Shown here piece by piece: positions 2,159-41,451 of a DNA stretch of 64,000 bases; the stretch's first letter is position 1; each line of letters begins with the position of its first letter. Under the pieces are notes generated by a model. The model saw nothing but the letters and a program-made list of their open reading frames with translations. It was not told the DNA's origin and searched no databases. Both the position numbers and the translations under genes were made by a program. Source of the stretch: a bacterium (GTDB lineage Bacteria; Patescibacteriota; Dojkabacteria; JAKAPS01; JAJZLI01); the NCBI GenBank assembly GCA_021810605.1, contig JAJZIL010000001.1, positions 604 through 64,603 on the forward strand. Direction: 5' to 3'.

Positions 2159-3004
2159 CTATAAATATTGTAAAAATTGAATATTAAATATTGCTCCTAT
2201 TGATGTAAGTATTATAAATGCAAATATTATAACAAGTAACCCAATTATTGATTTTGTCATAAGACTCTTTCCTCGCCCTAATTTTTCTGGATCTCCTCCA
2301 GATACCATAATTAAGTATCCAGCAAATATTATAACCGCAAATGCAAGCATAAAAGCTAAAGTAAGTACTATTTTATACACAAAATTTATTACCCCATATA
2401 AAGAAGTATCTATACATCCAAAATCAGTATATATATACTGATATGTACTTCCTCCCTTACTTACACAAGATATACATTGTGAATTTCCCCCACATGCAGA
2501 ACTAACTGAATATTTAGATGTTGAATTTGATGTTGAAGTACTAGTAGGTTTATAAAAATAGATAATAAAATTATTAGTTCCTTGAATTAAGGTGGCAAGA
2601 GATTCTACAGATGAAATATTTCCAACATTAATTTGATTAACAGTAGTATTATTTACCTTACAGTAAGAATTTACAACATTAGCAGAACTATTTATTTTTA
2701 GATACACAGTAACAATAAGATTTCCTACTTTACTACTATTAGAAATTTCAGTAACAGGGATAATAAAATTTGATCCTATTCCTGAACTAGAAATTGAGGA
2801 CACATTTAAATTCGAACTATTTGAATTATTAATAAGAGCTGAAGAAACCTGAGCAAAAGATTGACAAGTAACATAATTCTTAGTACTTGCATAAATTTTA
2901 CTAATATTATTATCTATTAATATATTAAACCCAGATAAAAATAATCCTACAGTTAATAAAATTAATAAAAATCTATACCCTATTTTTTTTAATAAACTAT
3001 TCAT
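2159..3004 (-). CDS. VirB2/TrbC-like pilin-family protein with large S/T/N-rich ectodomain (paralog 5)
   Basis: 281 aa. MNSLLK leader plus TM. C-terminal TM - SGGDPEKLGRGKSLM - TM module. Confidence 0.5.
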   Translation of the reverse strand: MNSLLKKIGYRFLLILLTVGLFLSGFNILIDNNISKIYASTKNYVTCQSFAQVSSALINNSNSSNLNVSSISSSGIGSNFIIPVTEISNSSKVGNLIVTVYLKINSSANVVNSYCKVNNTTVNQINVGNISSVESLATLIQGTNNFIIYFYKPTSTSTSNSTSKYSVSSACGGNSQCISCVSKGGSTYQYIYTDFGCIDTSLYGVINFVYKIVLTLAFMLAFAVIIFAGYLIMVSGGDPEKLGRGKSLMTKSIIGLLVIIFAFIILTSIGAIFNIQFLQYL

Positions 3005-3051
3005 AAATAATTGTATAAACGATACATTATACTATAAAATATAACATATGT

Positions 3052-5784
3052 TTATCTTTTATAACATAGACTTCTGTACTCACAATAAGTGCAAGCAAAA
3101 GAAGGTGTAGCTTTTACCTCTAATTCCCTTATCTTTACAATAAGGTCTATGACTTCATTCTTTACCCTATCTATATCAATTTTATCATAATTTATTGTTA
3201 TTTCTTTACCTTCATCTATAAATATAAGTTTTAAATCTTTTATCTCTTTTTTAAATTTCTCTTTTACTAGTATTGAGTAAATTCCAAGTTGCATATTAGA
3301 TGAGCTCGTATCCTGACTAGAAGAGCTTCCAGTTTTATAATCTATAATAGAAACTGTTCCATCTTCTAAAAAATCTAATCTATCTAACCTACCATTAATA
3401 GGATATATTTGATCCATAAATAAATCTATATTCTCTTCATAAGAGTTACTTAACCCTCTAGGTTTAATAAGCTCAATATTATTTTTTATTGATTCCAATC
3501 CTTTTTTCTTATAACTATCAATATGCTCTTTACTTCTAAAAACCGAAAGATTAACTCTTTCCCAACGAGCATTATAAATATTATCTAAAAGATCTATATT
3601 AAGTATATTTCTATCTCTCTGTAAATACTGTTTGAGAGTATCATGTATAAGATTACCATACTCGAATACTAATTTAGGCTGTTTTTTAACTCTTAATATA
3701 TATTCATAATAATACTGCAATGGACATGTTTTAAATAGGTTTAATTGAGAATAAGAATATTTCTGAGGAATAGAATTCTCTGGAATAAAAAAATCTGGAT
3801 CTATATATGTACTCTTTTCACTTTTATTATCTAAATTAATTCTTTCAGTTTTTTTATGAAATCCAGTAAGAAATATACTCTTATCTTTTTTAGTCTTATT
3901 TCCCTCATACATATCTGAATAGCTAAGATATACACTCTTCTTTGCTCTAGTTAATGCCACAAAAAAAAGTCTTTTTTCTTCCTCAATAAATGATTCTTCT
4001 TCTGGAACAGATTCATGTAATAAAGATGAATTTATTCCTATATCTCCACCTCTATTTCTAGTTGGAAACCTATCTTTTACAAGATATGGTATAAATACAT
4101 ATTCAAATTCTAAACCTTTAACTGAATGAATAGTTGATATAGTAACACTATCAAAATTTACATCTTCAGAAATATCATCATCTATAGAAGATATTTTATC
4201 AATATTTTTTATATATTTAGAAAAATACTCTACATTATTCTCTTGCAACTTTTCTATAATAGCAATAAATCTATCTAAATTAGACCTCTTTACTATGGAA
4301 TCATTTTTTTTGTGTAAGAAGTCAAAATAAAAACTAGAATCTAAAAATTCGTTTATCTTATCTAGAATAGCTATATCTTTATCTAAAAGTCTAGATAAGA
4401 TATTATATACGTTTATTATTTTATTAGTTTTAAAAGAATATTCATCAGATTTAGATTCTACAATTTTAGATAATCCTTCAAAATATGATTTTCCCTTAAA
4501 ATTAGTATTTAAAAAATCTATTATACCTGCAAATTCTTCCTTAGAAATGTTGAAACTCTCTATACTAAGAATCCTTAAAAAAGATATATTATCAGAGGAA
4601 TTCTCTGAAAAATATACTACTGAAGATAAATCTTTAAATTCTTGAGACATCTCAAATGTAGAAGATCCTCTAAGATATATTGGGATATTATATTTAATAA
4701 ATAATTCAGCAAAATCATTTATATAAGAATTCGACCTTAGAAGTATTGCTATATCAGAAAATTTTATACCATTGTTATGCATCTTTATAATTTCATCTTT
4801 TATATAATTAACCTCCTGAGTATTTTTATTAAAATTAAGAATTCTAATATCATCTTTATTACTTCCCTTTACTGATTTCAAAGTATTAGAATCTCCTATA
4901 AAAGAATAAGCTTCATCTATAATTTCTTGATATGATCTATAATTATAATCCAAAGTATACTCAATACTATCAGCAAAAAATTTTTTAAATGTATTGAAAT
5001 TTGATAGTGCAGCACCTCTAAATTTATATATAGATTGATTCTTATCTCCTACTACAGTAATATTTGAAGCAAGCTTTAAAATAAGCTGATTTTGTATATA
5101 ATTTGTATCTTGAAATTCATCTACAAGTATATATTTATATCTCTCTTTATATTTTTTTAAAATATTGGGATTTTTTTCAAAAATCTTTAATACAAGATAT
5201 ATCAAATCATTAAATTCTAGCTTTGATTCTTCTATTTTAAGTTGTAAATATTTCTCATATAGATATGATAATTCTTCAAAATATTCATCTTTATTTTTAA
5301 GATTTATAAACTCTTCAGGAGAAATATATTCATCTTCAAGTTTTGAAAAAAATTCTAAGATCTTATCGATCTCTTTATCAGGATTTGAAAGTGGTCTTAA
5401 TATATTAATATCAAAATCAAATATATGATCTGATAGAAAAACGAAACTCTCCATTCTATCCATAACTATAAAATCTTTTTTAAGATCAAAAAACTTATAA
5501 TTTTCTCTAAGTATTTTCTCTGCTAGAGAATGAAAAGTCTCTATATTTACTTCACTAAAAAGACCTAGAGTATCCGAAAGTCTATTTTTTATTTCTTCTG
5601 CAGCTTTCTTTGAAAATGTAACAGCAAGTATACTATTTTCAGTAAAACCCTTAGTGATAAGATATTTTATTTTTTCAATTATAAGAAAAGTTTTCCCAGT
5701 GCCAGGACCAGCATTCACAATAACTGGCGAAGATATGTTACATACAGCTTGTTTTTGAATATCATTTAAATTCATATAATTCAA
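3052..5784 (-). CDS. UvrD/PcrA-type superfamily-1 helicase fused to C-terminal RecB/Cas4-like PD-(D/E)xK nuclease with 4Fe-4S Cys cluster
   Basis: 910 aa. Walker A NAGPGTGKT near the N-terminus. Walker B-like LVDEFQDT. C-terminus has CPLQYYYEY ... DRLD ... IDYKTG ... CTYCEYRSLC, a Cx(n)CxxCx5C cluster typical of AddB/Cas4 nuclease domains. Confidence 0.8.
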   Translation of the reverse strand: MNYMNLNDIQKQAVCNISSPVIVNAGPGTGKTFLIIEKIKYLITKGFTENSILAVTFSKKAAEEIKNRLSDTLGLFSEVNIETFHSLAEKILRENYKFFDLKKDFIVMDRMESFVFLSDHIFDFDINILRPLSNPDKEIDKILEFFSKLEDEYISPEEFINLKNKDEYFEELSYLYEKYLQLKIEESKLEFNDLIYLVLKIFEKNPNILKKYKERYKYILVDEFQDTNYIQNQLILKLASNITVVGDKNQSIYKFRGAALSNFNTFKKFFADSIEYTLDYNYRSYQEIIDEAYSFIGDSNTLKSVKGSNKDDIRILNFNKNTQEVNYIKDEIIKMHNNGIKFSDIAILLRSNSYINDFAELFIKYNIPIYLRGSSTFEMSQEFKDLSSVVYFSENSSDNISFLRILSIESFNISKEEFAGIIDFLNTNFKGKSYFEGLSKIVESKSDEYSFKTNKIINVYNILSRLLDKDIAILDKINEFLDSSFYFDFLHKKNDSIVKRSNLDRFIAIIEKLQENNVEYFSKYIKNIDKISSIDDDISEDVNFDSVTISTIHSVKGLEFEYVFIPYLVKDRFPTRNRGGDIGINSSLLHESVPEEESFIEEEKRLFFVALTRAKKSVYLSYSDMYEGNKTKKDKSIFLTGFHKKTERINLDNKSEKSTYIDPDFFIPENSIPQKYSYSQLNLFKTCPLQYYYEYILRVKKQPKLVFEYGNLIHDTLKQYLQRDRNILNIDLLDNIYNARWERVNLSVFRSKEHIDSYKKKGLESIKNNIELIKPRGLSNSYEENIDLFMDQIYPINGRLDRLDFLEDGTVSIIDYKTGSSSSQDTSSSNMQLGIYSILVKEKFKKEIKDLKLIFIDEGKEITINYDKIDIDRVKNEVIDLIVKIRELEVKATPSFACTYCEYRSLCYKR

Positions 5785-8089: not shown

Positions 8090-8181
8090 GATAATATAAA
8101 TTTAGCAATATAATAATTTGTTTGCTAGAGTAATATTAGCAGATGTACAAAGCCCTTGTCAATATACATCTATACTAGAAT

Positions 8182-9990
8182 TTAGATCTCAGGAGAATTA
8201 GATATACTATCATCTACACCTGAACCTCCCTTAAATCTCTTTCCATATATAAAATCTCTAAATGTATATACTGTACGAGTTAATAAATCCATATCTGGAT
8301 CGTTTAGTACAAAGGATGAAATTATATATGCAGATAATCCAATATATACTGTTATTAAGAATAGGAATATGATATCTACTGTTTTAGCTGTATTAAATAT
8401 TGTTGAAAGTAATTTATATACTGAATACATTATTATAGACATAAAAAACCCACTAAAAAGTTTTTTTATAGCAGGAGAATAAAAATCTTTAAAAGAAAAT
8501 CCTTTTAATTTCTTTGATAATAGATATACTAATACTAATACATTTAATGTTACTGCTATAGCAGATGCAAACCCTAATCCTCCTATAGCCTTCCAAGTAA
8601 ATTTACTATTAAAATGAATATAGTTATTAATATTAAATAGATTCCCTATTGTAGAAGATACTACTGGGAAATTTCCAAATACTCTAACAAAATATAGAGC
8701 TAGTACAACATTCAAAAGAAATGTAACAATCTCAACTATTACTGGAGTTTTCGTATCTTTTAGAGAATAAAAAGCCCTTATAAGTATAGATAATACAGAT
8801 TGTCCAATTATAGAAAGTGATAAGAATAAGAGTATCCAAGACGTAAGGATTGTATCATTCCAACCAAACTTACTATTCGAACCTGGCCCTAAAATTAACC
8901 TTACTATTGGAAGCCTTAGTACAAGAATCATAACAAATATCGGGATTACAAAAAATAATGTTTGATTTATAGTTTTTGAAACAGTTTTTTTAAAAGTATC
9001 TATCATATTTCCAGATGACTCTTCTGCAAGTGTAGGAAAAGATGCTTGAGCAAAACTCCAACCTACTACTGCCACAGGAAAGAGATATAAACTAGATGCC
9101 CAATTAAATGCAGTTAGAGATCCAGGAACTAATGCAAAAGCAACAAAAGATTCTACAAAATATGCTAATTGAGAAAAAGCTATTCCTATGAATCTTGGAA
9201 AAGATAGTACAAATAACTCTTTAACATATTTATTTTTTAATTTTAGTATCTCAGATTTATAATTAAATCCAAGATATTTTGCCACAGGAAATTGAACTAA
9301 TAAATGAAAAATACTCCCTAAAACTATACCCCAACATAATCCATAAATACCTAAAAATGGGGTAAAAAATAATATTCCTATAATAAAACCCAGATTATAT
9401 AATACTGTAGCAATTTGAGTTACAAGAAATCTTTTATATACCTGAAGAAGAGAACTGAAAATAAAAGATACCCCTAATATTATAGGGGATATAAATAAAA
9501 TCTGCATAAGAGATGCTATCAAAGAGATATCTGAATTTGAAAAACTTGGAATTGCAGAAGATCTATATGTAAATGCAAAATATACGAATAACTCTGCTAT
9601 TTCTTTTGCAAATATTATTCCTAATATACCCACAATAAGTAAAACTAAAGCAAATATATTTAAAAACGAATTAAATACTTTCCACATTGTTTTACTTTTC
9701 TTCTTATATACAAGTTCTCCTATAACTGGAATAAGAGCTGTGTTAAAAGATCCAAGTACTAAAATATTAAAAAATATTTGAGGAATTGAGTCTGCTGCAT
9801 AAAATATATCTAGACTACGTGATAAACCAAATATATTTGCAAGTAATGTAAGTTTGAAAAGACCTAAAATCTTAGATATAGCAGTTACAGCCATTATAAT
9901 AAAAGCTGCTGAAACTATTGTATTCTGTCTTTTAACAAAAAAAGACGTACTATTTTTCTGAATACTGCTAAAAAGATTTCTTATTGTCAT
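8182..9990 (-). CDS. murJ: lipid II flippase MurJ/MviN family
   Basis: 602 aa, polytopic. The N-terminal region ILGLFKLTLLANIFGLSRSLDIFYAADSIPQIFFNILVLGSFNTALIPV matches the MurJ signature. Confidence 0.85.
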   Translation of the reverse strand: MTIRNLFSSIQKNSTSFFVKRQNTIVSAAFIIMAVTAISKILGLFKLTLLANIFGLSRSLDIFYAADSIPQIFFNILVLGSFNTALIPVIGELVYKKKSKTMWKVFNSFLNIFALVLLIVGILGIIFAKEIAELFVYFAFTYRSSAIPSFSNSDISLIASLMQILFISPIILGVSFIFSSLLQVYKRFLVTQIATVLYNLGFIIGILFFTPFLGIYGLCWGIVLGSIFHLLVQFPVAKYLGFNYKSEILKLKNKYVKELFVLSFPRFIGIAFSQLAYFVESFVAFALVPGSLTAFNWASSLYLFPVAVVGWSFAQASFPTLAEESSGNMIDTFKKTVSKTINQTLFFVIPIFVMILVLRLPIVRLILGPGSNSKFGWNDTILTSWILLFLSLSIIGQSVLSILIRAFYSLKDTKTPVIVEIVTFLLNVVLALYFVRVFGNFPVVSSTIGNLFNINNYIHFNSKFTWKAIGGLGFASAIAVTLNVLVLVYLLSKKLKGFSFKDFYSPAIKKLFSGFFMSIIMYSVYKLLSTIFNTAKTVDIIFLFLITVYIGLSAYIISSFVLNDPDMDLLTRTVYTFRDFIYGKRFKGGSGVDDSISNSPEI

Positions 9991-10119
9991 AATTATTAAA
10001 GAATTTTAACAAAGTATAGCATTAAAATTTTTATTCTAAAAGTTATATTTTTATATCAAAAATTTGCAAAAATAAACAATAAAAATGATATAATAATAAA
10101 ATCATGTTTTAACAATTTA

Positions 10120-10836
10120 ATGAAGTACTTAATAATAATACCCACATACAATGAAAGATTGAATATAGAAAAATTAATAAAAAAGATTTTTGCTACTAAA
10201 ATTGATCTTAATATACTCTTTGTAGATGATAAATCCCCTGACAAAACTGGAGATTATATAAAAAAAATTCAAAAAAGAAATTCTCATATATATCTAATAG
10301 AGGGAGATAAAAAGGGATTAGGAGATGCCTATAAAAGGGGGTTTCTTTATGCTATTGATAAATTACATCCTCAATATATAATTCAGATGGATGCAGATCT
10401 TTCACATGATCCTAAATATATCGTAAATCTTATAAAAGAATCAAAAAATAATGATGTTGTTATAGGATCAAGATATATAGAAGGAGGAAGTATTCCTAAT
10501 GAATGGAGTTTTACAAGAAAAATGAATTCCAAATTTGGAAATGTGTTTACAAAAAGTATATTAAAATTTCCATATAATGACTGCACATCTGGATTCAAAA
10601 TAATAAAATCCAGTGTATTTGATAAAGATATTATAAGATCAATAAATTCAAATGGGTATTTATTTCAAGTTGAAATACTTTACTATTTTTATAAAAAACA
10701 TTTAAAAATAAAGGAAATTCCTATTAATTTTAAAGATAGATCTCTAGGATTCTCGAAACTATCATTAAAAGATATATTTGAATATTTCTCTAAAATTAAT
10801 AAGATTAAGAATAAATATAATAAACTTTATAACTAA
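10120..10836 (+). CDS. GT2 polyprenol-phosphate mannose/glucose synthase (DPM1/Ppm1-like)
   Basis: 238 aa. IIIPTYNERLNIEKL, VDDKSPDKTGD, GLGDAYKRG, MDADLSHDP and VIGSRYIEGG are the motifs of dolichol/polyprenol-phosphate mannosyltransferases. Confidence 0.8.
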   Translation: MKYLIIIPTYNERLNIEKLIKKIFATKIDLNILFVDDKSPDKTGDYIKKIQKRNSHIYLIEGDKKGLGDAYKRGFLYAIDKLHPQYIIQMDADLSHDPKYIVNLIKESKNNDVVIGSRYIEGGSIPNEWSFTRKMNSKFGNVFTKSILKFPYNDCTSGFKIIKSSVFDKDIIRSINSNGYLFQVEILYYFYKKHLKIKEIPINFKDRSLGFSKLSLKDIFEYFSKINKIKNKYNKLYN

Positions 10837-10839
10837 ATT

Positions 10840-11598
10840 ATGGATTTATCTATAATAATAATTAATTGGAATACATATAATCTAACATATAAATGTATAG
10901 ACAGTATAAAAATTTCAAATTATAAGTATGAGATAATTTTAGTCAATAATAGTAGTAATGATGCAATCAAGATTGCTAAATTAAAGAATATATATAACAA
11001 TCTTAAAATTATACAAAATAAAGAAAACATTTATTTTGCTAAAGCTAATAATAGAGCTTACTCTGAAGCAAAAGGTAGATATATATTATTACTTGGATCT
11101 GATACTAGAATTTTAAATGATGCTATAGATCAATTAATTAAATTTTTGGATACGAACTCAAAATACTCAATAGTATCACCTCAACTTATAAATTCTGATG
11201 GTAGTATACAAAGATCTTGTAGAAATTTTCCAACAGTTATAAATGTATTTAAATCATTATTTGATATAAATCAAAAATCTAGATTCTTTGGAGAGTATAA
11301 ATTATCATATTGGGATCATAATGATTCTATGGAAGTTGTTCAGCCTCAAGCTACATGTATTTTAATAAGAAAAGAAATAATAGATAAATATGGTCTTTTT
11401 GATGAAAAATTTCCTCTATATTTTAATGATGTAGATTTTTTCAGAAAAATGAAAAAATTTAATATAAAGACATATTTTTTATCTACAGCAAAAATAATTC
11501 ATTTTTACGGTCAAAGCACTAGAAAATTAAGATGGAAAAGAAAATTACTTTTATATACTGGATATATTAATTATATAAAAAAATGGGGATTAAATTAA
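10840..11598 (+). CDS. glycosyltransferase family 2
   Basis: 252 aa. LSIIIINWNTYNLTYKCIDSI at the N-terminus and LGSDT (DxD-like) are typical of GT2. Confidence 0.7.
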   Translation: MDLSIIIINWNTYNLTYKCIDSIKISNYKYEIILVNNSSNDAIKIAKLKNIYNNLKIIQNKENIYFAKANNRAYSEAKGRYILLLGSDTRILNDAIDQLIKFLDTNSKYSIVSPQLINSDGSIQRSCRNFPTVINVFKSLFDINQKSRFFGEYKLSYWDHNDSMEVVQPQATCILIRKEIIDKYGLFDEKFPLYFNDVDFFRKMKKFNIKTYFLSTAKIIHFYGQSTRKLRWKRKLLLYTGYINYIKKWGLN

Positions 11599-11608
11599 TT
11601 AATGTAAT

Positions 11609-11725
11609 TTATTTACTTTCTTCTTGATTAGCTTGTAATCTCATTTTTTTTCTTTCTCTATTTCTAACTCTCTGCTCTTTAGCTTTAAGTTTTTCTTTTG
11701 TTCTCATTTTTTTTCTTTTACTCAT
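11609..11725 (-). CDS. small (38 aa) highly basic ORF not in supplied track (MSKRKKMRTKEKLKAKEQRVRNRERKKMRLQANQEESK)
   Basis: Hand translation of the minus strand. K/R-rich like small ribosomal or nucleic-acid-binding proteins. It sits between SDR and GT genes. Below the ORF-track length cutoff. Confidence 0.25.
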   Translation of the reverse strand: MSKRKKMRTKEKLKAKEQRVRNRERKKMRLQANQEESK

Positions 11726-11756
11726 GCCAAGAGTATATCTAAAAAACTATAATATT

Positions 11757-12533
11757 TCAATAATTATTAATCCTAGTAATAATTTTTCCTAGTATATTGT
11801 GAGGAACAAATTTAATAATAAATACTGATAATCTATTTAATATTCCTGTTACAACAACTCTTTTTCCTTTCATTAATCCATTATAACCAATTAAAGCTAC
11901 TTGTTTTGCACTCATTGCTGAAGAATCAAAAGATTTTTGATTCTTCAGATGAGCTACAGATGCAAAATTAGTTTTAGTTGAACCTGGACATAAAGCTGTA
12001 ACAGTTATATTATATTTGATATTTTCAAAAAATAAAGCTTCAGAAAAAGATAAAACATAAGCTTTTGTAGCGAAATAGACACTCATATATGGACCTGGTA
12101 AAAATGCTGCAACAGAAGCAAGATTCAATATCTTTCCTCTTTTTCTTTTTTTCATATCAGGAAGTATAAAATACGTGAGCTTAGTTAATGATAGAATATT
12201 AAGATTTATCATATCTTGATATCTATCAATACTACTACTATTAAATTCTCCACCCCAACCAAAACCAGAATTATTCACTAATATGGAAATTTTAAGTTTT
12301 TTAGAAGTTATGAAAGAAAATACTTTCTCTGCTGAATCATATAAAGATAAATCTATAGCTATATATTCTACATTTATTTTATATTTCTTCTCTATATTTA
12401 GCTTTATATCTTTTAATTTTTCTTTATTCCGAGATACTAATAGAAGATTATTTTTACTTTTAGCGAATAAAAGCATCAATTCATATCCTATTCCACTTGT
12501 TGCTCCAGTTATAAGTACATACTCTTTATTCAT
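11757..12533 (-). CDS. short-chain dehydrogenase/reductase (SDR)
   Basis: 258 aa. TGATSGIGYEL cofactor motif, NNSG, and the catalytic YFATK (YxxxK). Confidence 0.85.
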   Translation of the reverse strand: MNKEYVLITGATSGIGYELMLLFAKSKNNLLLVSRNKEKLKDIKLNIEKKYKINVEYIAIDLSLYDSAEKVFSFITSKKLKISILVNNSGFGWGGEFNSSSIDRYQDMINLNILSLTKLTYFILPDMKKRKRGKILNLASVAAFLPGPYMSVYFATKAYVLSFSEALFFENIKYNITVTALCPGSTKTNFASVAHLKNQKSFDSSAMSAKQVALIGYNGLMKGKRVVVTGILNRLSVFIIKFVPHNILGKIITRINNY

Positions 12534-12548
12534 CTACTTTTTAGTATA

Positions 12549-13277
12549 TCATAAATATTTATCCAAATTATTATAAAAATTAGATTTATCATAAAAATTA
12601 AAGAAATTTAATTCTTCTTTATATTTTTTTAATTCTATATAAGATTCTACCTTATTTTTAATAAATTCAGATCTTTGTATATCAGGAAATATAAATATAA
12701 CTTTAGGAAAAACATCAAAATACTTTTTATATTCCATAGATAAATAAAAATTTGAATATACATCTATCTTATTAAGTATTTTAAAAAATGTCTCTGTTGA
12801 TCTATCTAGCTCTAAATAAATATTATTCTTGTTAAATATACAAAACCCATCTGGAATAATCTTATATGCTTTACCTTCATATTTAAAATATTTTGCAGTA
12901 TTAATATCAGAAACCCAATCAGAAAAAATATAATTATTTCTTAATGCATATTGTTTAAGATTTATAAAAAAAATATTAGATTCTAATATATGAGGAAGAA
13001 AAAATTGTTTATATGTGTCTTGTATATAGCTAAAAGTTTTCAGATTATTCCCTATAATTTTATTACCTTTTTTAGTAGAAAAATAATATCTAAAACCTCT
13101 ACGATTAGACACCCTCAAAAAAGAAATCAATTTATACTCATAAAGGAGATTTATTCTTTTTCTTAATGTACTAAGTTTTATGTCAAAAAATAAATTAATA
13201 TCTTTTACAGATAGACATGGATGTTGATCAATAAAGCTAAGAATCTGAATGTCTTTTTCTTTAATTTCCGTGTACAT
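12549..13277 (-). CDS. winged-helix protein, replication-relaxation-family-like with possible PD-(D/E)xK-like core
   Basis: 242 aa. N-terminal MarR-like wHTH (ILSFIDQHPCLSVKDINLFFDIKLSTLRKRINLLYEYKLI). Downstream IIPDGFCIF ... YLELDRSTE resembles the PDG...E.DrgTE motif of replication-relaxation proteins. Confidence 0.4.
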   Translation of the reverse strand: MYTEIKEKDIQILSFIDQHPCLSVKDINLFFDIKLSTLRKRINLLYEYKLISFLRVSNRRGFRYYFSTKKGNKIIGNNLKTFSYIQDTYKQFFLPHILESNIFFINLKQYALRNNYIFSDWVSDINTAKYFKYEGKAYKIIPDGFCIFNKNNIYLELDRSTETFFKILNKIDVYSNFYLSMEYKKYFDVFPKVIFIFPDIQRSEFIKNKVESYIELKKYKEELNFFNFYDKSNFYNNLDKYL

Positions 13278-13279
13278 AT

Positions 13280-13726
13280 CTAAAACAGATAATTCCGAAT
13301 CCTCTCTAATTCACCTTTTAAATATATGACTCCCAAACGAGTAAAGTCTCTTTTAATATTTTGTTGATTAGAAGATAAATCATTAAGAACAAATATTTTC
13401 TTCCCTAAAATATATGCAAAGCCTATATCCATATACATATTATAACCAATATATCCTAAGATATTATTCCAATCATAATTTAATATTAGAATTGAATCTG
13501 AACTTTGTATAAAATTATACTCTATATCAAAAGAGTCCTTTCTAAGCTTTAACAATGAAGTATTTTTAGCATCAGAATAACGACTTTTACTTGATTCTAA
13601 AAGATTATACTCTTCAAAAAATGGTAAATTGCAATCATATCCATACTCTTGTAATAATAACATAACCTTTTTAGATTCAATATAATTTTCTATTTTAGAA
13701 CAAATTAATATTTTTTTTCTATCCAT
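13280..13726 (-). CDS. nucleoside 2-deoxyribosyltransferase-like (NDT/SLOG-fold) small protein
   Basis: 148 aa. YMDIGFAYILGKKIFVL matches the NDT active-site region (FElGyAyAlGKPv) with Asp in place of the catalytic Glu. 8-nt overlap with the ATPase upstream. Confidence 0.4.
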   Translation of the reverse strand: MDRKKILICSKIENYIESKKVMLLLQEYGYDCNLPFFEEYNLLESSKSRYSDAKNTSLLKLRKDSFDIEYNFIQSSDSILILNYDWNNILGYIGYNMYMDIGFAYILGKKIFVLNDLSSNQQNIKRDFTRLGVIYLKGELERIRNYLF

Positions 13727-15719
13727 AAGTATTTAATAATCTAGAATAAATTGTATATACAGCATTATTATCATTTTTAGAGTAAATAAGATATCTATTT
13801 ATATTTGAAGGAATTTCAAAGTTTATAATATTAGAAAGATATTTCCTGGAACTCTCCCCAGTATCCATTATATAAAAATTTGAACAATTCTCTATGATAC
13901 TAGATAAATATTTTTTATCTATCTGATCTATATATTGATTCGCAACAAATACTGATAAATTGTACTTACGAGATTCTGAAAAGATAAATAGGACATTCTC
14001 GGATATAAAATTTTGAAATTCATCAATATACAAATATACATGATTCTTACTTTTTTTCTGAATAATAGTATTTCTTATCTGATTTATTATTAAAGATCCT
14101 AAAAATTTAGAATTCTCTTCCCCTACTACATTTTTTGGTATAGAAAATATTATACTTTTACCTTTATCAACAATAGAATTTAAATCTAAATTCTTATTTT
14201 CTCCAGATACAAACTTAGAAATAAACTTATCTGATTTGAGTCTACCTATCTTATTTATTATTGGAGAAATTCTATCCATCCTTGACCTATTATCCCACTT
14301 AGAAAAAATACTATCAAAGTAATCTAGTGTATCTTTATCTTTTAGAGTTAAAAGAACCTTTAATCTAAAGTGTTCATCTGTCAAAAATTCTTCTAAATCT
14401 AAAATATTATACTTATTTTCAGAAAATATTAAAGCTGAAAGACTTCTTCTTAAAATATCATCACTCTGAGGACCCCAAAACTCAGGATAAAGATCTTTAA
14501 ATATAGAAACAATATTATCAATTAAAAGATATTTATTCATATTTGGATCTAGATTTAAAGGATTAATAGAATATTTAATATCAGAAAAATCTACCAATAC
14601 ACAATTTTTTCTATCTTTTAAAGAGAGTTCTGATACTATCAAATCAGATAAATTATGGGGATCTATAACTATAGTAGATTTACAATTTTTAATATTCTGT
14701 ACAATTATATTTTTCATAAAAAGACTCTTCCCTGATCCAGTTTTTCCTATAAGATAACTATGTGATTTTAAGTATATATCCTTTATTCTAACCTTTTTCC
14801 CATTATTAAATCCTATAAATACACCTTTATTTTTATCCAATACTCTAGAGGGTATATTTAACTCTAAACTGTGCTTGACTAGATTTAAAGAATTATTACT
14901 ACTGACAATAGGTCTGAATATATGAGATAAATTTTTATTATAAAATAATATAGATTTAGCCTTATTATTAGATAATAATAGTGATACTCTATTTAGAATC
15001 TTCTTATCATTAGATTCAACTTTTAGAATAACTAGAGATAAATCCTTGAATCTATATGGATTTCTTAAAATAAAGCTAAAAGATACGCTTTTATTGTCTT
15101 TCAATATATTTAATATATCTTCATAGTAGTTATAAGAAGAATCTAATAACAAATATTTCTTATATAATTTTATCTCTCTTTTCTTAATAGTTGAGATAAT
15201 AATATCTGGGTAATTTAAATGTACAACATCTTTTATATGGTCTATATTTGCTTTACTAATTTGAACCGAATTATATACTTCTCCCCTTACATATTCATAA
15301 GAAATATTTAAAGGTAGTCCTAAAAAAATATCCTCTAGACTCTTATAATGGGGTGTTCTCGTGGAAGATAATTTTAAATTTACTTTTTTAACTATAAATA
15401 AAGATTTTATGAAGAAAAATAGATAATTTAATAGTATCAAAATAGACAACAAATATAGTTCCCAATATATATATTTATATGAATAAGCTAAAAAAATTAA
15501 TACTGGAATAAATGTTGCAAAAAATGATCTACTTACACTCTGAGAATAAGATGAAATTAAATTTTTTATTTTTGATATTAAAGTTCCTTCTGAATATAAA
15601 ATATGTATAATTATTAAAAGAAAAATAATAAATATTGGAATATAACTTTGAGGAAATAAAAAAATATATACAAAAAGTAATATTATTAGAAATTGGTTTA
15701 GATAAAAATTCTTTTTCAT
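13719..15719 (-). CDS. membrane-anchored FtsK/HerA-superfamily ATPase, TraG/VirD4-like type IV coupling protein
   Basis: 666 aa. Three to four N-terminal TM helices. Walker A LIGKTGSGKSLF followed by IVIDPHNLSD. Walker B VYLYIDEFQNF. ANQYIDQI resembles the QSxxQL motif of T4CPs. Confidence 0.6.
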   Translation of the reverse strand: MKKNFYLNQFLIILLFVYIFLFPQSYIPIFIIFLLIIIHILYSEGTLISKIKNLISSYSQSVSRSFFATFIPVLIFLAYSYKYIYWELYLLSILILLNYLFFFIKSLFIVKKVNLKLSSTRTPHYKSLEDIFLGLPLNISYEYVRGEVYNSVQISKANIDHIKDVVHLNYPDIIISTIKKREIKLYKKYLLLDSSYNYYEDILNILKDNKSVSFSFILRNPYRFKDLSLVILKVESNDKKILNRVSLLLSNNKAKSILFYNKNLSHIFRPIVSSNNSLNLVKHSLELNIPSRVLDKNKGVFIGFNNGKKVRIKDIYLKSHSYLIGKTGSGKSLFMKNIIVQNIKNCKSTIVIDPHNLSDLIVSELSLKDRKNCVLVDFSDIKYSINPLNLDPNMNKYLLIDNIVSIFKDLYPEFWGPQSDDILRRSLSALIFSENKYNILDLEEFLTDEHFRLKVLLTLKDKDTLDYFDSIFSKWDNRSRMDRISPIINKIGRLKSDKFISKFVSGENKNLDLNSIVDKGKSIIFSIPKNVVGEENSKFLGSLIINQIRNTIIQKKSKNHVYLYIDEFQNFISENVLFIFSESRKYNLSVFVANQYIDQIDKKYLSSIIENCSNFYIMDTGESSRKYLSNIINFEIPSNINRYLIYSKNDNNAVYTIYSRLLNTYG

Positions 15720-16450
15720 TTAATACTAAAAGTTTCTAAATTTTTATAAAATTCAAATATATTATAATTTTTTATTAAATAGACCTTACCTACTCCATAT
15801 ACAGTATAATTAATTTTATTTGTAGTAAATATAACAGTATCCTCATCAATACCAATAATTAAAGAATCTTTTGGAAAACTATTGAAAAATTGCTTATTTA
15901 GATATTTTAAATTAATCAATTTAGAAAATTTATTGAAATGAGGTATCACACTAAAATTAACTATTCCAGATAATCTAGAAATTTCCAAACCATCTTCTCT
16001 TTTCTTCTTAAAAATACTTTTAAAAATATTATTAGGTAAAAATTCCCCCATTATCATAGCACCTGCTGATGACCCAGCAAGAATAAAACCTTTGTCATTA
16101 TTAACCCTCTGTATAATCTTTTCTAAAAATAAAGTATTTTCTAAACATGAAAAAAGATATTCAGGATCTCCTCCAGAAAAATATATAACATTACATTGAT
16201 CAATAAGATTAATATTACTACTTTCAAAAAAATCTTTTCTTGACACTATATCAGCTCCAAATGAATCTATTCCAATTTTTTCAAAATGACTAATCCCATC
16301 ATCAATCCATTTATGATAATCAGATTCTTTCCCTGCAGCTGCTGGAATTATCATGACTCTAGGATTATCTATTACACCTATAATATCTTCATCTATTTGA
16401 TTCATAGAATCAGTGAATTCTCCAGAACCCGCTAATAATAACTTTCCCAT
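15716..16450 (-). CDS. peptidase family S51 (dipeptidase E/cyanophycinase-like)
   Basis: 244 aa. IYFSGGDPEYL and ILAGSSAGAMIMG (GxSAG nucleophile elbow) are characteristic of S51. 4-nt overlap with the downstream ATPase. Confidence 0.75.
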   Translation of the reverse strand: MGKLLLAGSGEFTDSMNQIDEDIIGVIDNPRVMIIPAAAGKESDYHKWIDDGISHFEKIGIDSFGADIVSRKDFFESSNINLIDQCNVIYFSGGDPEYLFSCLENTLFLEKIIQRVNNDKGFILAGSSAGAMIMGEFLPNNIFKSIFKKKREDGLEISRLSGIVNFSVIPHFNKFSKLINLKYLNKQFFNSFPKDSLIIGIDEDTVIFTTNKINYTVYGVGKVYLIKNYNIFEFYKNLETFSIK

Positions 16451-16468
16451 ATATCATATTATAACACT

Positions 16469-17305
16469 TCAACTCTTCTCAACTAATAGTCTTGCAAACT
16501 CCATACCATTACTATCACTATCTTTTTTCATATAATTCAAAATAGATTCTCCTATTTTAGGAATATTTGATCTCTTAAAAAATATCTGGATATTCTCAAC
16601 AGAGCTTATAGAAAGAATATTATTCCCTAAATTATTCTCTAAAAGAAAATTAGAATAGTTTTGCATAGACATGTATAGTGAAATTTTTTTTAACTGAGAT
16701 ATAAATGCTTTTGAAAAAAAACTATTACTACTTATATTCTCAATATCATTTATATTATACCCTCTAAAATATGCTTGTATAAAAATTCTAATTGTATCTT
16801 TTTCCCAACCAAGAGATTGTAAATGTGAATATATCAATGATATAGAATTTATTTCTCCTAATCCAGATAGAAATGTAAATTTCTTAGATAAAAAATCTAT
16901 CATACTAGAGGAAAATGGAGATATAAAAGGATCAAATATAGGGATATTCTGTATTCTTGATAATTTATTAGCAATCCTAACTTGAGGAAGAAAATCTAGA
17001 TTACTATTTTCAAGTATGATAAAACTGTACTCATAATTAAAATCTTTATATTGTAACCAAATATCTTTTGTAGCAGAAAAAGAAGATATACCATTCAATA
17101 TTATTAAAGTTTTACCAGTTGGAAATTTTAAAACAGAGTGAGTTGAATCTGGAAGATAAAGACTCTTACTCTGTTCTCTATTAATAACTCTAATATTATC
17201 AAAAGAAATAATTTCAGCTAAATCCCCATTAGTTTCAGTATTAGAATTATCATTGGATCTATTTAAATAGAAAATATTTCCTGAATTATTAAATTTATTC
17301 TCCAT
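16469..17305 (-). CDS. hypothetical protein
   Basis: 278 aa ORF, first gene of the minus-strand run ending at the SDR. No recognisable motifs. Confidence 0.5.
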   Translation of the reverse strand: MENKFNNSGNIFYLNRSNDNSNTETNGDLAEIISFDNIRVINREQSKSLYLPDSTHSVLKFPTGKTLIILNGISSFSATKDIWLQYKDFNYEYSFIILENSNLDFLPQVRIANKLSRIQNIPIFDPFISPFSSSMIDFLSKKFTFLSGLGEINSISLIYSHLQSLGWEKDTIRIFIQAYFRGYNINDIENISSNSFFSKAFISQLKKISLYMSMQNYSNFLLENNLGNNILSISSVENIQIFFKRSNIPKIGESILNYMKKDSDSNGMEFARLLVEKS

Positions 17306-17413
17306 TCAAATTAGATTGTAACAAATACATATATACTAACTCAACTTAAAGTATATTGACAAAAACTATAAGGTAATCTAGAATAGGTTTAATAATTTAT
17401 TTTAATAAATATT

Positions 17414-18073
17414 ATGAATAAAGAAAGACAAGAACATATAGATGATTTAGTACAGAAAAGTATTCATTCCAGAAGAAAACCAATGAATAGAAGAAAAAAA
17501 CTAGAAAGAACTTTACTTCTTGCAGCAGGACTATTTACTGCTGGTTTGGGAATTGATAAAGCACTTAATTTTACTAATAAAACAGAGGTAGGCAATCCTG
17601 TATCTACAAAATTAGTTAATAGACCTGAAGTTAATGGAGTCCCTGAAGTATCTGAAGGAGAGATTTCTGTTACAAGTGGAGGAAATCTTGTGACTGTTGC
17701 AATAGGAATAGAAGATAACCCAGCTATTAAAAAAGCTTTTCATATACAATCTAATCCAAATTCTAATTACAAAGTTACTCTAGAAGCAAATAATTTTACT
17801 ACAGATAGAGGACAAATATCCTTCCCTAAAATGAATGGATCTATAGGAGAAACAGCTATAATAACCAAAGTTTCTAATGGAACAAGTTCTGAGATAGCAA
17901 GTGATAAGAATAGCTATATATTAGTCTTTACAGGAGAAAATTCACAAAATTCTATAAACTTTCAAAGCGAAGTACAAAATACTGGGATATCAGGAGAATA
18001 TGCTATTAGAATTACAAATAATGTAACTGGTAATTCTAAAAATTTAATGAAAACATCTTTCCAAACTAGTTAA
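17414..18073 (+). CDS. membrane-anchored hypothetical protein (basic N-terminus, one TM, extracytoplasmic S/T/N-rich domain)
   Basis: 219 aa. RRKPMNRRKKLERTLLLAAGLFTAGLGI is a TM anchor. Confidence 0.5.
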   Translation: MNKERQEHIDDLVQKSIHSRRKPMNRRKKLERTLLLAAGLFTAGLGIDKALNFTNKTEVGNPVSTKLVNRPEVNGVPEVSEGEISVTSGGNLVTVAIGIEDNPAIKKAFHIQSNPNSNYKVTLEANNFTTDRGQISFPKMNGSIGETAIITKVSNGTSSEIASDKNSYILVFTGENSQNSINFQSEVQNTGISGEYAIRITNNVTGNSKNLMKTSFQTS

Positions 18074-18078
18074 ATATA

Positions 18079-18984
18079 CTAGTCAGTAAATTCACTATAC
18101 ATATGATCAGAAGATCTTGACATATAATGAGGAACTGCTGAATAAGGATTGTTAGAATGAATTACACATGCAGCAATAATATATGCTGGTGCATTCATAT
18201 ATATATCAGCAACATCTAATATAGTTTTTCTAGTTGATTCTGTTTTTTCAATAAGATCTTCCCCTTCTCCAGAGTATATTAAAATATTTTTTAATATCGA
18301 ATCTGAAAAAAAATATCTCTCACTCGAATCCATCCTATTACGATAATCCATCATCTTACTATATATAGATAACTTATTTTTAATAAAATCAATATTCTCA
18401 CTATCTCTATAAAATAAAAGACTTTCTAATATTTCTCTTTCTGGAAGATTATTAAAAAATTTTTTTATATATTCATATTCATTATATATCTCTACAGATT
18501 CTTCAATAATCTTACCTTTAGAAGAAGCAATATACCCAGAAACCATTTTTAAAAAATATGAATCCAATTGATTTTCAAAAGAAGACTTCATGTCCTTAAT
18601 ATATTTTTTAGAATTAGTAGAAATAGTTTCAAATTCTTTTTGAAAAAAATAATTACTATCTAAACCAAATTGAGTGTAATTTATAAGTCTCTGATTTTTA
18701 GAATTATTAATATGATCTAATTTTTGAATAATATTATAATTATTAAAAATAGATTTATATTTATACAATGAAATAGAAGGAAGATAACTTTCATCCTGAA
18801 TACGTTCTAATTCACTTTTATGTATGGTCCTTTCTTGCTTCTTATAACTACTTGTCATTGTTATTGTAGTTTCATTAATCTCTATGTCGTTAATCTCTAC
18901 TAAATTCATGTTCTTAAATAATGATAAAAATATTAAGTATTGAATTATACTACAATTTATTATTAAAAACCAAATGTTTATCAT
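18079..18984 (-). CDS. hypothetical protein
   Basis: 301 aa ORF with no recognisable motifs. Confidence 0.5.
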   Translation of the reverse strand: MINIWFLIINCSIIQYLIFLSLFKNMNLVEINDIEINETTITMTSSYKKQERTIHKSELERIQDESYLPSISLYKYKSIFNNYNIIQKLDHINNSKNQRLINYTQFGLDSNYFFQKEFETISTNSKKYIKDMKSSFENQLDSYFLKMVSGYIASSKGKIIEESVEIYNEYEYIKKFFNNLPEREILESLLFYRDSENIDFIKNKLSIYSKMMDYRNRMDSSERYFFSDSILKNILIYSGEGEDLIEKTESTRKTILDVADIYMNAPAYIIAACVIHSNNPYSAVPHYMSRSSDHMYSEFTD

Positions 18985-41448: not shown

Positions 41449-41451
41449 ATT

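Follow-up and report, generated by a model that had tools for sequence, protein, structure and literature searches.

A predicted coupling protein/relaxase gene pair carried on the chromosome in a lineage of Patescibacteria, with NDT-fold and S51 peptidase genes beside it

Relaxases of the MOBC class, among them TraX of pAD1 and MobC of CloDF13, belong to the PD-(D/E)xK enzymes and carry an N-terminal winged helix-turn-helix (wHTH) domain (PMC3424549, PMC12857230), and PF13814 (Replic_Relax) is the Pfam family behind this relaxase class (PMC5357655 Table 1; PMC12857230). The mobC relaxase operon of CloDF13 has been described (PMC3357382), as has the 'DNA translocation operon' of phages 0305phi8-36 and SPO1, made up of a MobC-like relaxase and a VirD4-like ATPase (PMC3357382). 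A 2025 survey of the Patescibacteria counted 5,713 VirD4-like type IV coupling proteins (T4CPs) against 109 relaxases, with MOBC as the commonest relaxase class (58) and 39 of the 109 relaxase genes adjoining a t4cp gene (PMC12102498). The phylum carries thousands of T4CP-like genes and chromosomal type IV secretion systems (T4SSs) with almost no relaxases, and it is debatable whether this machinery still moves any DNA (PMC12102498). Here we analysed a 64,000-nucleotide stretch (the window) of chromosomal DNA from uncultured Patescibacteria (candidate phyla radiation, CPR; GCA_021810605.1, contig JAJZIL010000001.1, positions 604 to 64,603), in which four neighbouring genes encode a T4CP-like ATPase, a Replic_Relax protein (REL), a protein with the fold of nucleoside 2-deoxyribosyltransferases (NDTs) and a peptidase of family S51. 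The explanation that we favour, with moderate confidence, is that the core of this cluster is a relaxase and T4CP-like pair of plasmid and phage ancestry, domesticated in the chromosome of one Patescibacterial lineage within a cell-envelope glycan/MurJ locus.

The four open reading frames (ORFs) all lie on the minus strand, as a preliminary description of this DNA had placed them. Coordinates here and below are positions in the window, which has a GC content of about 25%.

12549-13277, minus strand: REL (Replic_Relax), 242 amino acids (aa), with an N-terminal winged-HTH and a PD-(D/E)xK domain; PF13814
13280-13726, minus strand: NDT-like protein, 148 aa, with the NDT fold (nucleoside 2-deoxyribosyltransferase/DNPH1-like) and the catalytic Glu replaced
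13719-15719, minus strand: T4CP-like ATPase, 666 aa, of the FtsK/HerA superfamily, anchored by transmembrane (TM) helices
15716-16450, minus strand: S51 serine peptidase, 244 aa, cyanophycinase/PepE-like; PF03575

The S51 and ATPase genes overlap by 4 nucleotides (nt), the ATPase and NDT-like genes by 8 nt, and a 2-nt gap separates the NDT-like gene from REL. The preliminary description took these overlaps as a sign of translational coupling. Of the 28 same-strand neighbour pairs of the window outside the cluster, 8 overlap and 15 have at most 20 nt between them; because overlaps are the norm in this compact genome, the tight packing is not evidence of coupling. The domain or fold proposed for each of the four proteins (S51, T4CP-like ATPase, NDT fold, Replic_Relax) was borne out. 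Sixteen contigs encode the same 666-aa ATPase, GCA_027425035.1 and contigs of 243-304 kb among them.

REL matches PF13814 over profile positions 1-190 of 191 (E=9e-16, 59 bits, cut-off 25.3). Its residues 6-57 give weak matches to HTH_24, MarR and TFIIE, and the REL profile finds the Transcription Factor E wHTH. Among phage families, REL matches phrog_9381 ('replication initiation by nicking') at 3e-11. The residues P142-D143-G144, E156, D158, R159, T161, E162 and K166 are invariant in nine orthologues, down to 40% identity. The related lineages were compared by the identity of their ATPase to that of the window: L095 (82%), L010 (67%), L007 (47%), L094 (45%), L093 (44%) and L008/L009 (38%). 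In all seven lineages, the window's included, REL adjoins the ATPase, either directly or across the NDT-like gene. By profile and conserved residues, REL is a predicted member of the MOBC-type relaxase family and the core partner of the ATPase.

The ATPase exceeds the Pfam cut-offs of TraG-D_C (30.4 bits, cut-off 22) and DUF87 (27.3 bits, cut-off 23.2), and its orthologues also match TrwB_AAD_bind (P0013: 26.1 bits against a cut-off of 20.5) and T4SS-DNA_transf (P0009). When the ATPase family profile was compared with the PDB, the best match was TrwB (1e9r, 5e-8), ahead of HerA and DotL; TcpA followed at 0.12 and FtsK at 0.5. Hydropathy gives three to four N-terminal hydrophobic helices (about residues 8-110, in segments of about 8-45 and 84-110 and a weaker one at 66-82), and Lys and Arg residues adjoin the N-terminus and the last helix at its end; on this hydropathy, a membrane anchor with a cytoplasmic motor can be proposed as the topology. 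Behind the TM region come a middle domain of about 200 aa and, at about residues 300-640, the P-loop motor. Residues N594, Q595 and Q599 are invariant in the orthologues, as are Walker A (GKTGSGKS) and Walker B (YIDEFQNF). Some 230 residues lie between Walker A and Walker B, and in the orthologues this stretch was aligned to TrwB_AAD_bind profile positions 9-291 and to the ATPase of plasmid pBMB53. The protein is thus predicted to be a membrane-anchored, type-IV-coupling-protein-like ATPase of the T4CP family, and the earlier assignment to T4CPs rather than to an FtsK-like family stands. An FtsK/SpoIIIE identity was rejected on its far weaker matches (FtsK_SpoIIIE Pfam E=0.19; PDB FtsK 0.5 against 5e-8 for TrwB). 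The FtsK/SpoIIIE and TcpA translocases share with the cluster ATPase a membrane anchor of about four TM helices, a linker and a P-loop motor of the same superfamily, but the cluster ATPase is without the gamma wHTH domain and its profile matches to them are much weaker than those to T4CPs. PADLOC returned mad8 for the ATPase domain at 9e-15 and HerA models weakly; the lead to the MADS system was dropped, as the match covers the shared P-loop domain only and the MADS paper gives no helpful function. In the PHROG comparison, the window proteins also match the phage family phrog_5156 at 5e-41.

A tblastn search of plasmids with the ATPase gave 167 records, mostly Bacillus and archaeal conjugative plasmids. 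On pBMB53 of B. thuringiensis, typed as MOBC by MOB-suite, a homologous ATPase (387 residues aligned with the window ATPase, E=3e-24) stands in a Tcp-type transfer locus: a 'replication-relaxation family protein' follows at once, and after it a 'conjugal transfer protein', genes of the TcpD/TcpE families and an ATP-binding protein. The window REL and the pBMB53 REL match weakly (E=0.001), with their PDG and E-x-(D/E)-R motifs in register. The order ATPase then Replic_Relax was also found at a metagenome locus, L108, and is that of the operon of phage 0305phi8-36 (PMC3357382). Since PF13814 stands for the MOBC relaxases, we read the ATPase and REL from their sequences as the known coupling-protein/relaxase pair, in agreement with the preliminary description's view of a T4CP with a relaxation protein.

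Plasmid MOBC modules (CloDF13 mobB-mobC, pAD1 TraX and the pBMB53 type) resemble the window pair in having a T4CP ATPase followed by Replic_Relax and the PDG...E-x-(D/E)-R motif. In CloDF13, mobB is the coupling protein paired with mobC; in the CloDF13 record examined, neither gene has an intact ORF. The plasmid modules stand beside T4SS genes on a mobile replicon, whereas the window pair is chromosomal and syntenic with no T4SS gene found in 64 kb, has an NDT-fold gene between its members and S51 upstream, and shows a sequence identity of about 24%. In the phages, a MobC-like relaxase adjoins a VirD4/TraG-like ATPase outside a plasmid (0305phi8-36 orf200/201, SPO1 gp27.3/27.4); this operon, of unknown role, can be dispensed with in the laboratory (PMC3357382). 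The phage ATPase has no TM anchor, separate membrane proteins having been proposed, whereas the window ATPase is cellular and TM-anchored. The core module is thus known already, MOBC genes beside t4cp genes having been recorded in the phylum by the survey (PMC12102498). New are the domestication in the chromosome under long purifying selection, an NDT-fold gene whose product lacks the nucleophile and which lies between T4CP and relaxase, and the association with S51.

In the domesticated pair as we picture it, REL would use its N-terminal winged helix to bind DNA at a specific site and its PD-(D/E)xK centre to cut or nick it. The ATPase, presumably hexameric and held in the membrane by its N-terminal helices, would receive the REL-DNA substrate and pump DNA at or through the membrane, either feeding a Patescibacterial T4SS encoded elsewhere or acting alone. 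S51, the NDT-like protein and a 278-aa protein encoded upstream of S51 would be lineage-specific additions to the same transcription unit. Gene structure, the assignments to families and folds, the conserved catalytic motifs, the synteny and the purifying selection are observed; the DNA nicking, the DNA pumping, the co-transcription and the nature of the substrate are inferred.

Several observations weigh against this explanation. No T4SS genes (VirB4, VirB6, Tcp-like) were detected in the window by Pfam scans of 18 ORFs, precomputed calls on the ±10-kb flank and an ATPase-family hidden Markov model (HMM). REL gave no usable tblastn match in plasmids, phages and viral contigs, and its link to characterised MOBC proteins consists of the Pfam profile and the weak hhalign match (E=0.001). 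No REL relative was found in the phage collections by tblastn or by a pattern scan. An origin of transfer (oriT) of the TraX/pAD1 type consists of a direct-repeat binding site and a nic site. A search for direct and inverted repeats in 11500-18100 and an upstream alignment of six lineages gave no direct-repeat array and no conserved nic-site candidate in or around the cluster; the repeats of that region are two-copy and of low identity only, as expected in DNA of 22% GC, with no multi-copy family. The mechanism of the prototypes is itself incomplete, a covalent DNA intermediate not having been demonstrated for MOBC relaxases (PMC12857230), and Replic_Relax has also been proposed to be a transcription regulator (PMC3424549). 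Lastly, the wider ATPase family stands mostly without a relaxase among housekeeping genes, and the cluster ATPase may likewise have a non-conjugative job.

This wider family, very widespread in Patescibacteria (27-35% identity), was surveyed with custom HMMs over flanks of 8-10 kb, as a negative control for the gene association. REL was present at 3 of 160 loci (0/80 genome, 3/80 metagenome), and S51 or an NDT-like gene at none of the 160. The scans of genome and metagenome contigs were dominated by the generic Walker-B motif (Y/V/I)DEFQN, with only the 27-35% relatives among the matches listed, and among these no further member of the four-gene clade was found. The pairing with REL is a property of the window clade and of a few other loci. 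Many of the wider-family loci have a housekeeping order: SecA, SecD and SecF, then a sigma70_r4/HARE-HTH protein, an approximately 440-aa protein and the ATPase (about 560 aa), and lastly PGK, AlaRS or MnmA. Such a context suggests a conserved non-conjugative role for the wider family (DUF8128 plus motor). The VirD4-like T4CP family of Patescibacteria (DUF8128 + ATPase; PMC12102498) is the same ATPase family at 28-35% identity, with shared IDPH, DEFQNF, SE-RKY and NQ..Q motifs, and is likewise chromosomal and possibly exapted; the window clade differs from it in a distinct 4-TM N-terminus and an obligate REL partner.

SecA-SecDF-linked loci of the wider family include L082 (51-11151), with further cases in L078, L064, L081, L035, L086, L044 and others. 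The protein encoded ahead of the ATPase there, some 440 aa long, is homologous to the N-terminal part; N-domain and motor are separate in some genomes, and others have them in one protein of 900-1030 aa. An Abawacabacteria metagenome-assembled genome (L069, 65-17411) has its T4CP-like ATPase amid nine or more tandem paralogues of a protein about 550-590 aa long; one representative (2280-3983) was scanned and had no Pfam match.

The same contexts bear on a reading without DNA transfer, in which REL would be a wHTH transcription regulator and the ATPase a T4CP exapted for delivering protein substrates to a Patescibacterial T4SS, or for another membrane role. Besides the regulator proposal for Replic_Relax (PMC3424549) and the SecA/SecDF and PGK contexts of the wider family, it can draw on the abundance of Patescibacterial T4CP-like genes, mostly without a relaxase and perhaps exapted (PMC12102498). 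The full PD-(D/E)xK motif of REL, however, is invariant to 40% identity, which would be unexpected for DNA binding alone, and we regard this reading as quite unlikely.

The surroundings of the pair show the same order over a deep divergence. The preliminary description had left co-conservation of the four genes as a point to be settled, and the order S51, ATPase, NDT-like, REL and a short-chain dehydrogenase (SDR) was found again in five further lineages (L095, L010, L007, L094 and L093; SDR truncated in L010). The context is also shared by these five, with GT2_TM_C upstream and two convergent GT2 genes, MurJ, GroES/GroEL and UvrD downstream. In L008/L009, the ATPase and REL genes are adjacent with an 8-nt overlap, beside GT2-GT2-MurJ, and S51, the NDT-like gene and SDR are absent. 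The GC content of the cluster equals that of its surroundings, with no shift. The window is free of tRNA genes, the repeat search in 11500-18100 listed no flanking pair, and no integrase-family match was seen among the genes scanned or with precomputed Pfam calls, which covered part of the window ORFs. Between the window and L095, the dN/dS values (Nei-Gojobori, approximate as dS is near saturation) were 0.12 for the ATPase, 0.15 for REL, 0.10 for the NDT-like protein and 0.26 for S51, against 0.12 for SDR and 0.19 and 0.07 for the two neighbouring GT2 genes. The 278-aa protein reached 0.58, and the NDT-like protein 0.49 when compared with L010. Because the flanks are syntenic, marks of an island are missing, dN/dS is low and the REL motif is invariant, the block is read as old, vertically inherited, chromosomal and under purifying selection.

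The cluster had been described as inserted, with integration scars to be looked for at its flanks. A recent insertion or genomic island was rejected on the GC content, the lack of tRNA genes and flanking repeats, and the conserved synteny; what was found is an old syntenic chromosomal block, and the search for scars in 11500-18100 gave no flanking repeats. Of the idea that the cluster is the relic of a mobilisation module, the ancestry holds. The word relic does not, given purifying selection and the invariant catalytic motifs of REL and S51.

These data also bear on whether the cluster might be a still-mobile integrated mobilisable element, or the remaining edge of an ICE (integrative and conjugative element), that uses its own relaxase and T4CP on a conjugative pore. 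A relaxase and a T4CP are the minimal self-encoded mobilisation set, and the authors of the survey interpreted Patescibacterial relaxases as acquired mobile elements (PMC12102498). Against such mobility stand the missing integrase, tRNA, direct-repeat and GC signals given above, flanks that stay identical across lineages whose ATPases are only 38-47% identical, and substitution rates equal to those of the neighbouring genes; we consider it extremely unlikely.

Relatives have acquired small conflict cassettes in the SDR/GT2/MurJ region: in L007, a PIN_3 toxin and a 109-aa partner lie between SDR and the GT2 genes (12044-12834), and in L095 an AbiEii protein and a 211-aa partner lie between the GT2 genes and MurJ (8136-10293). 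Both cassettes are absent from the window.

The NDT-like protein is the fastest-evolving of the four, with 28% identity between the window and L007 against 45-49% for the other three. It matches PF05014 below the cut-off (E=0.15, 12.7 bits, cut-off 28.8). An exhaustive phmmer search gave 431 relatives at E<=1e-3, and PF05014 was found in 51 of 79 relatives (E<=0.01). An AlphaFold2 (AF2) model built from the 79-sequence alignment reached a pLDDT of 92; one built from a 3-sequence alignment reached 49 and was not used. In Foldseek, the model matched the CMP N-glycosidase BcmB (4jen), NDTs, DNPH1 and BlsM, with E of 7e-5 to 1e-2 and TM-scores of 0.5-0.6. In every lineage that has it, the gene lies between ATPase and REL and overlaps the ATPase stop.

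The replacement of the catalytic Glu by Asp in this 148-aa protein, noticed in the preliminary description, was confirmed by alignment to the family. In an ungapped stretch of the alignment, the position is D, D, Q, C, N and N in the six operon-linked orthologues, Asp being that of the window, whereas the free-standing relatives conserve Glu to at least 90%, in a block of the GGNTFLEMGFA type. Fusions of these free-standing relatives to MazG, ITPase-like NTPase_I-T or alpha/beta hydrolases are frequent and suggest enzymes of nucleotide house-cleaning. Compared with the NDT, DNPH1 and BcmB N-glycosidases, the fold is the same and family members match PF05014, but the window protein has Asp in place of the Glu nucleophile, its orthologues Q, C or N, and it stays below the Pfam cut-off. 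The protein is probably non-catalytic, its nucleophile being lost, and the role of a nucleotide-cleaving effector is therefore unlikely; a ligand-binding or adaptor protein would be more economical than an enzyme.

The preliminary description had offered a conflict cassette as its second reading. In a defence system of this kind, a HerA/FtsK-type ATPase would sense or translocate invading DNA, with REL as nuclease effector, the NDT/SLOG-like protein aimed at nucleotides, and a protease. An ATPase together with a PD-(D/E)xK nuclease is a common defence architecture, the ATPase domain has the mad8 and weak HerA matches, and the region in relatives is one that takes up conflict cassettes (PIN_3 in L007, AbiEii in L095). 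On the other side, PADLOC was blank for S51 and the NDT-like protein and gave REL only a marginal CARF3 match (E=0.008), so that mad8 is the one substantial match. The NDT-like nucleophile is not conserved, the ATPase falls in a TM-anchored T4CP family and REL in a relaxase family, and 157 of the 160 wider-family loci are without a REL, S51 or NDT partner. The distribution is vertical at one syntenic site over a deep divergence, not patchy. The conflict reading is weakened by these results and we hold it to be very unlikely.

The cluster is extended on both sides by co-oriented genes, and a promoter-like site lies upstream.

16469-17305, minus strand: protein of 278 aa in which no domain was recognised, 18 nt upstream of S51
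11757-12533, minus strand: short-chain dehydrogenase (SDR), adh_short at 3e-42, co-oriented, 15 nt downstream of REL
17315-17344, minus strand: promoter-like site, TTGAGT-18-TACAAT with an upstream TG, in a 108-nt divergent intergenic region

No match to the 278-aa protein was found in Pfam, NCBIfam, PADLOC or PHROG. Homologues stand at the same position in L095 (53% identity) and in L093 and L094 (24%, E=4e-8), with a 4-nt overlap with S51 in L093, and none was found in L007 or L010. The SDR gene follows REL in L007, L093, L094 and L095 and is truncated in L010; in L008 an unrelated 229-aa ORF stands instead. It is uncertain whether SDR is part of the functional unit.

A transcription unit likely extends from the promoter-like site (17344-17315) down to 11757, within which the cluster genes would be co-transcribed and the 278-aa gene would be the probable first gene. 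The terminator scan gave no terminator-like site inside 17344-11757, and an Rfam scan of the window gave no match. TTGAGT-18-TACAAT is a candidate operon promoter by its consensus match. The hexamer pair is conserved between the window and L095 and not in the other aligned loci, and the count of promoter-like sites around the cluster is not above the shuffled expectation.

The S51 protein matches PF03575 (E=2e-18, 67 bits, cut-off 23.9) and the cyanophycinase model TIGR02069 (1e-21) at 77.2 bits, below its equivalog cut-off of 126.6. A profile of six S51 orthologues matches the cyanophycinase-like exopeptidase 6nqc of the PDB at 3e-35 and cyanophycinases at about 1e-13. By these scores, we classify the protein as cyanophycinase-like and not as a cyanophycinase orthologue. 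S128 (in GSSAGA), H171 and E203 are invariant in the six orthologues. By their spacing relative to PepE and cyanophycinase, we take these residues to be the catalytic triad, and the peptidase is predicted to be catalytically intact. S51 lies upstream of the ATPase in six of the seven lineages. A JGI contig (3300033990; L002) differs from the window at a single base in 5.8 kb: one nucleotide of a T7 run is deleted (at about 6540, window position about 16232), which splits S51 into ORFs of 102 and 111 aa. The frameshift may reflect genuine dispensability, phase variation or an error of sequencing or assembly. We found no precedent linking S51 to relaxase/T4CP modules, in line with the preliminary description's remark that it has no obvious one. 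Its place in the ATPase-REL machine, for which co-orientation is the sole evidence, is unproven, and it is absent from L008/L009.

S51 and the NDT-like protein are lineage-specific additions, confined to a sub-clade, whose functional link to the pair is unproven. It is possible, if on balance doubtful, that only the ATPase and REL form a functional unit and that the genes for S51, the NDT-fold protein, the 278-aa protein and SDR serve ordinary salvage (housekeeping of peptides and nucleotides) or the envelope and share a compact operon with the pair. This differs from the domesticated-pair explanation only in denying the functional link of the additions, and it is compatible with all the data. 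Overlaps and gaps of up to 20 nt are normal in the genome, the whole region is syntenic so that conserved adjacency does not single out these genes, L008/L009 have neither S51 nor the NDT-like gene, the fusions of the free-standing NDT relatives (MazG, NTPase_I-T, alpha/beta hydrolases) fit house-cleaning, and S51 is split in L002 with the rest of the 5.8 kb identical. The last point is tempered by the T7 homopolymer, where the deletion may be a sequencing error. Against an unlinked set of genes, the NDT-like gene lies between ATPase and REL, overlapping the ATPase stop, wherever it is present, and it has lost a catalytic Glu that the free-standing relatives keep, which would be odd for a plain salvage enzyme.

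The opposite view, that the additions serve the transfer machine, would make the locus an Hfr-like module, permanently fixed in the chromosome, by which an obligate epibiont nicks its own chromosomal DNA and exports it to, or exchanges it with, sister cells or its host, with the dead NDT-fold protein and S51 as hitherto unknown accessory factors of the relaxosome or coupling complex. If so, the NDT-fold protein might be, for example, a nucleotide- or DNA-end-binding adaptor and S51 a processing protease. We think this rather unlikely. Under the domesticated-pair explanation, the locus is a testable candidate for domesticated DNA handling in ultra-small symbionts, vertical and selected and not the transient passenger of a plasmid or ICE. 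Possible roles are chromosome transfer, DNA export or import, or DNA clearance at the membrane. It would also be an example of an NDT-fold protein losing its nucleophile after recruitment into such an operon.

Divergently from the cluster, a near-consensus promoter (TTGACA-17-TAGAAT, window 17356-17384, plus strand) stands ahead of a gene for a 219-aa membrane or secreted protein. Its TTGACA-containing motif is kept in five of six aligned upstream regions and is the sole conserved non-coding element found near the cluster. At the other end, between SDR and the convergent GT2 gene, a 38-aa ORF (11609-11725, minus strand) encodes a very basic peptide, MSKRKKMRTKEKLKAKEQRVRNRERKKMRLQANQEESK, and has its own promoter-like site (TTGAAA-17-TATACT, 11760-11732). 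It is called as a gene of 36-38 aa in L001, L093, L094 and L095 and is conserved in DNA and peptide; two 24-nt 'direct repeats' near the cluster are internal to it.

Elsewhere in the window, two very large ORFs of 759 and 1521 aa (55984-58263 and 59104-63669, minus strand) had no Pfam match at E<=1e-4. Amid glycosyltransferase genes, a KAP-family P-loop NTPase of 848 aa (PF07693, 2e-36; 27286-29832, minus strand) is encoded. Adjacent genes for a GH18 chitinase-like protein and an S8 subtilase, both with C-terminal RCC1-like repeats, lie at 39349-43566 on the plus strand, within the one stretch of the window that is richer in GC (0.29-0.37). The same GH18/S8 pair is found directly upstream of the ATPase-REL pair in L008/L009.

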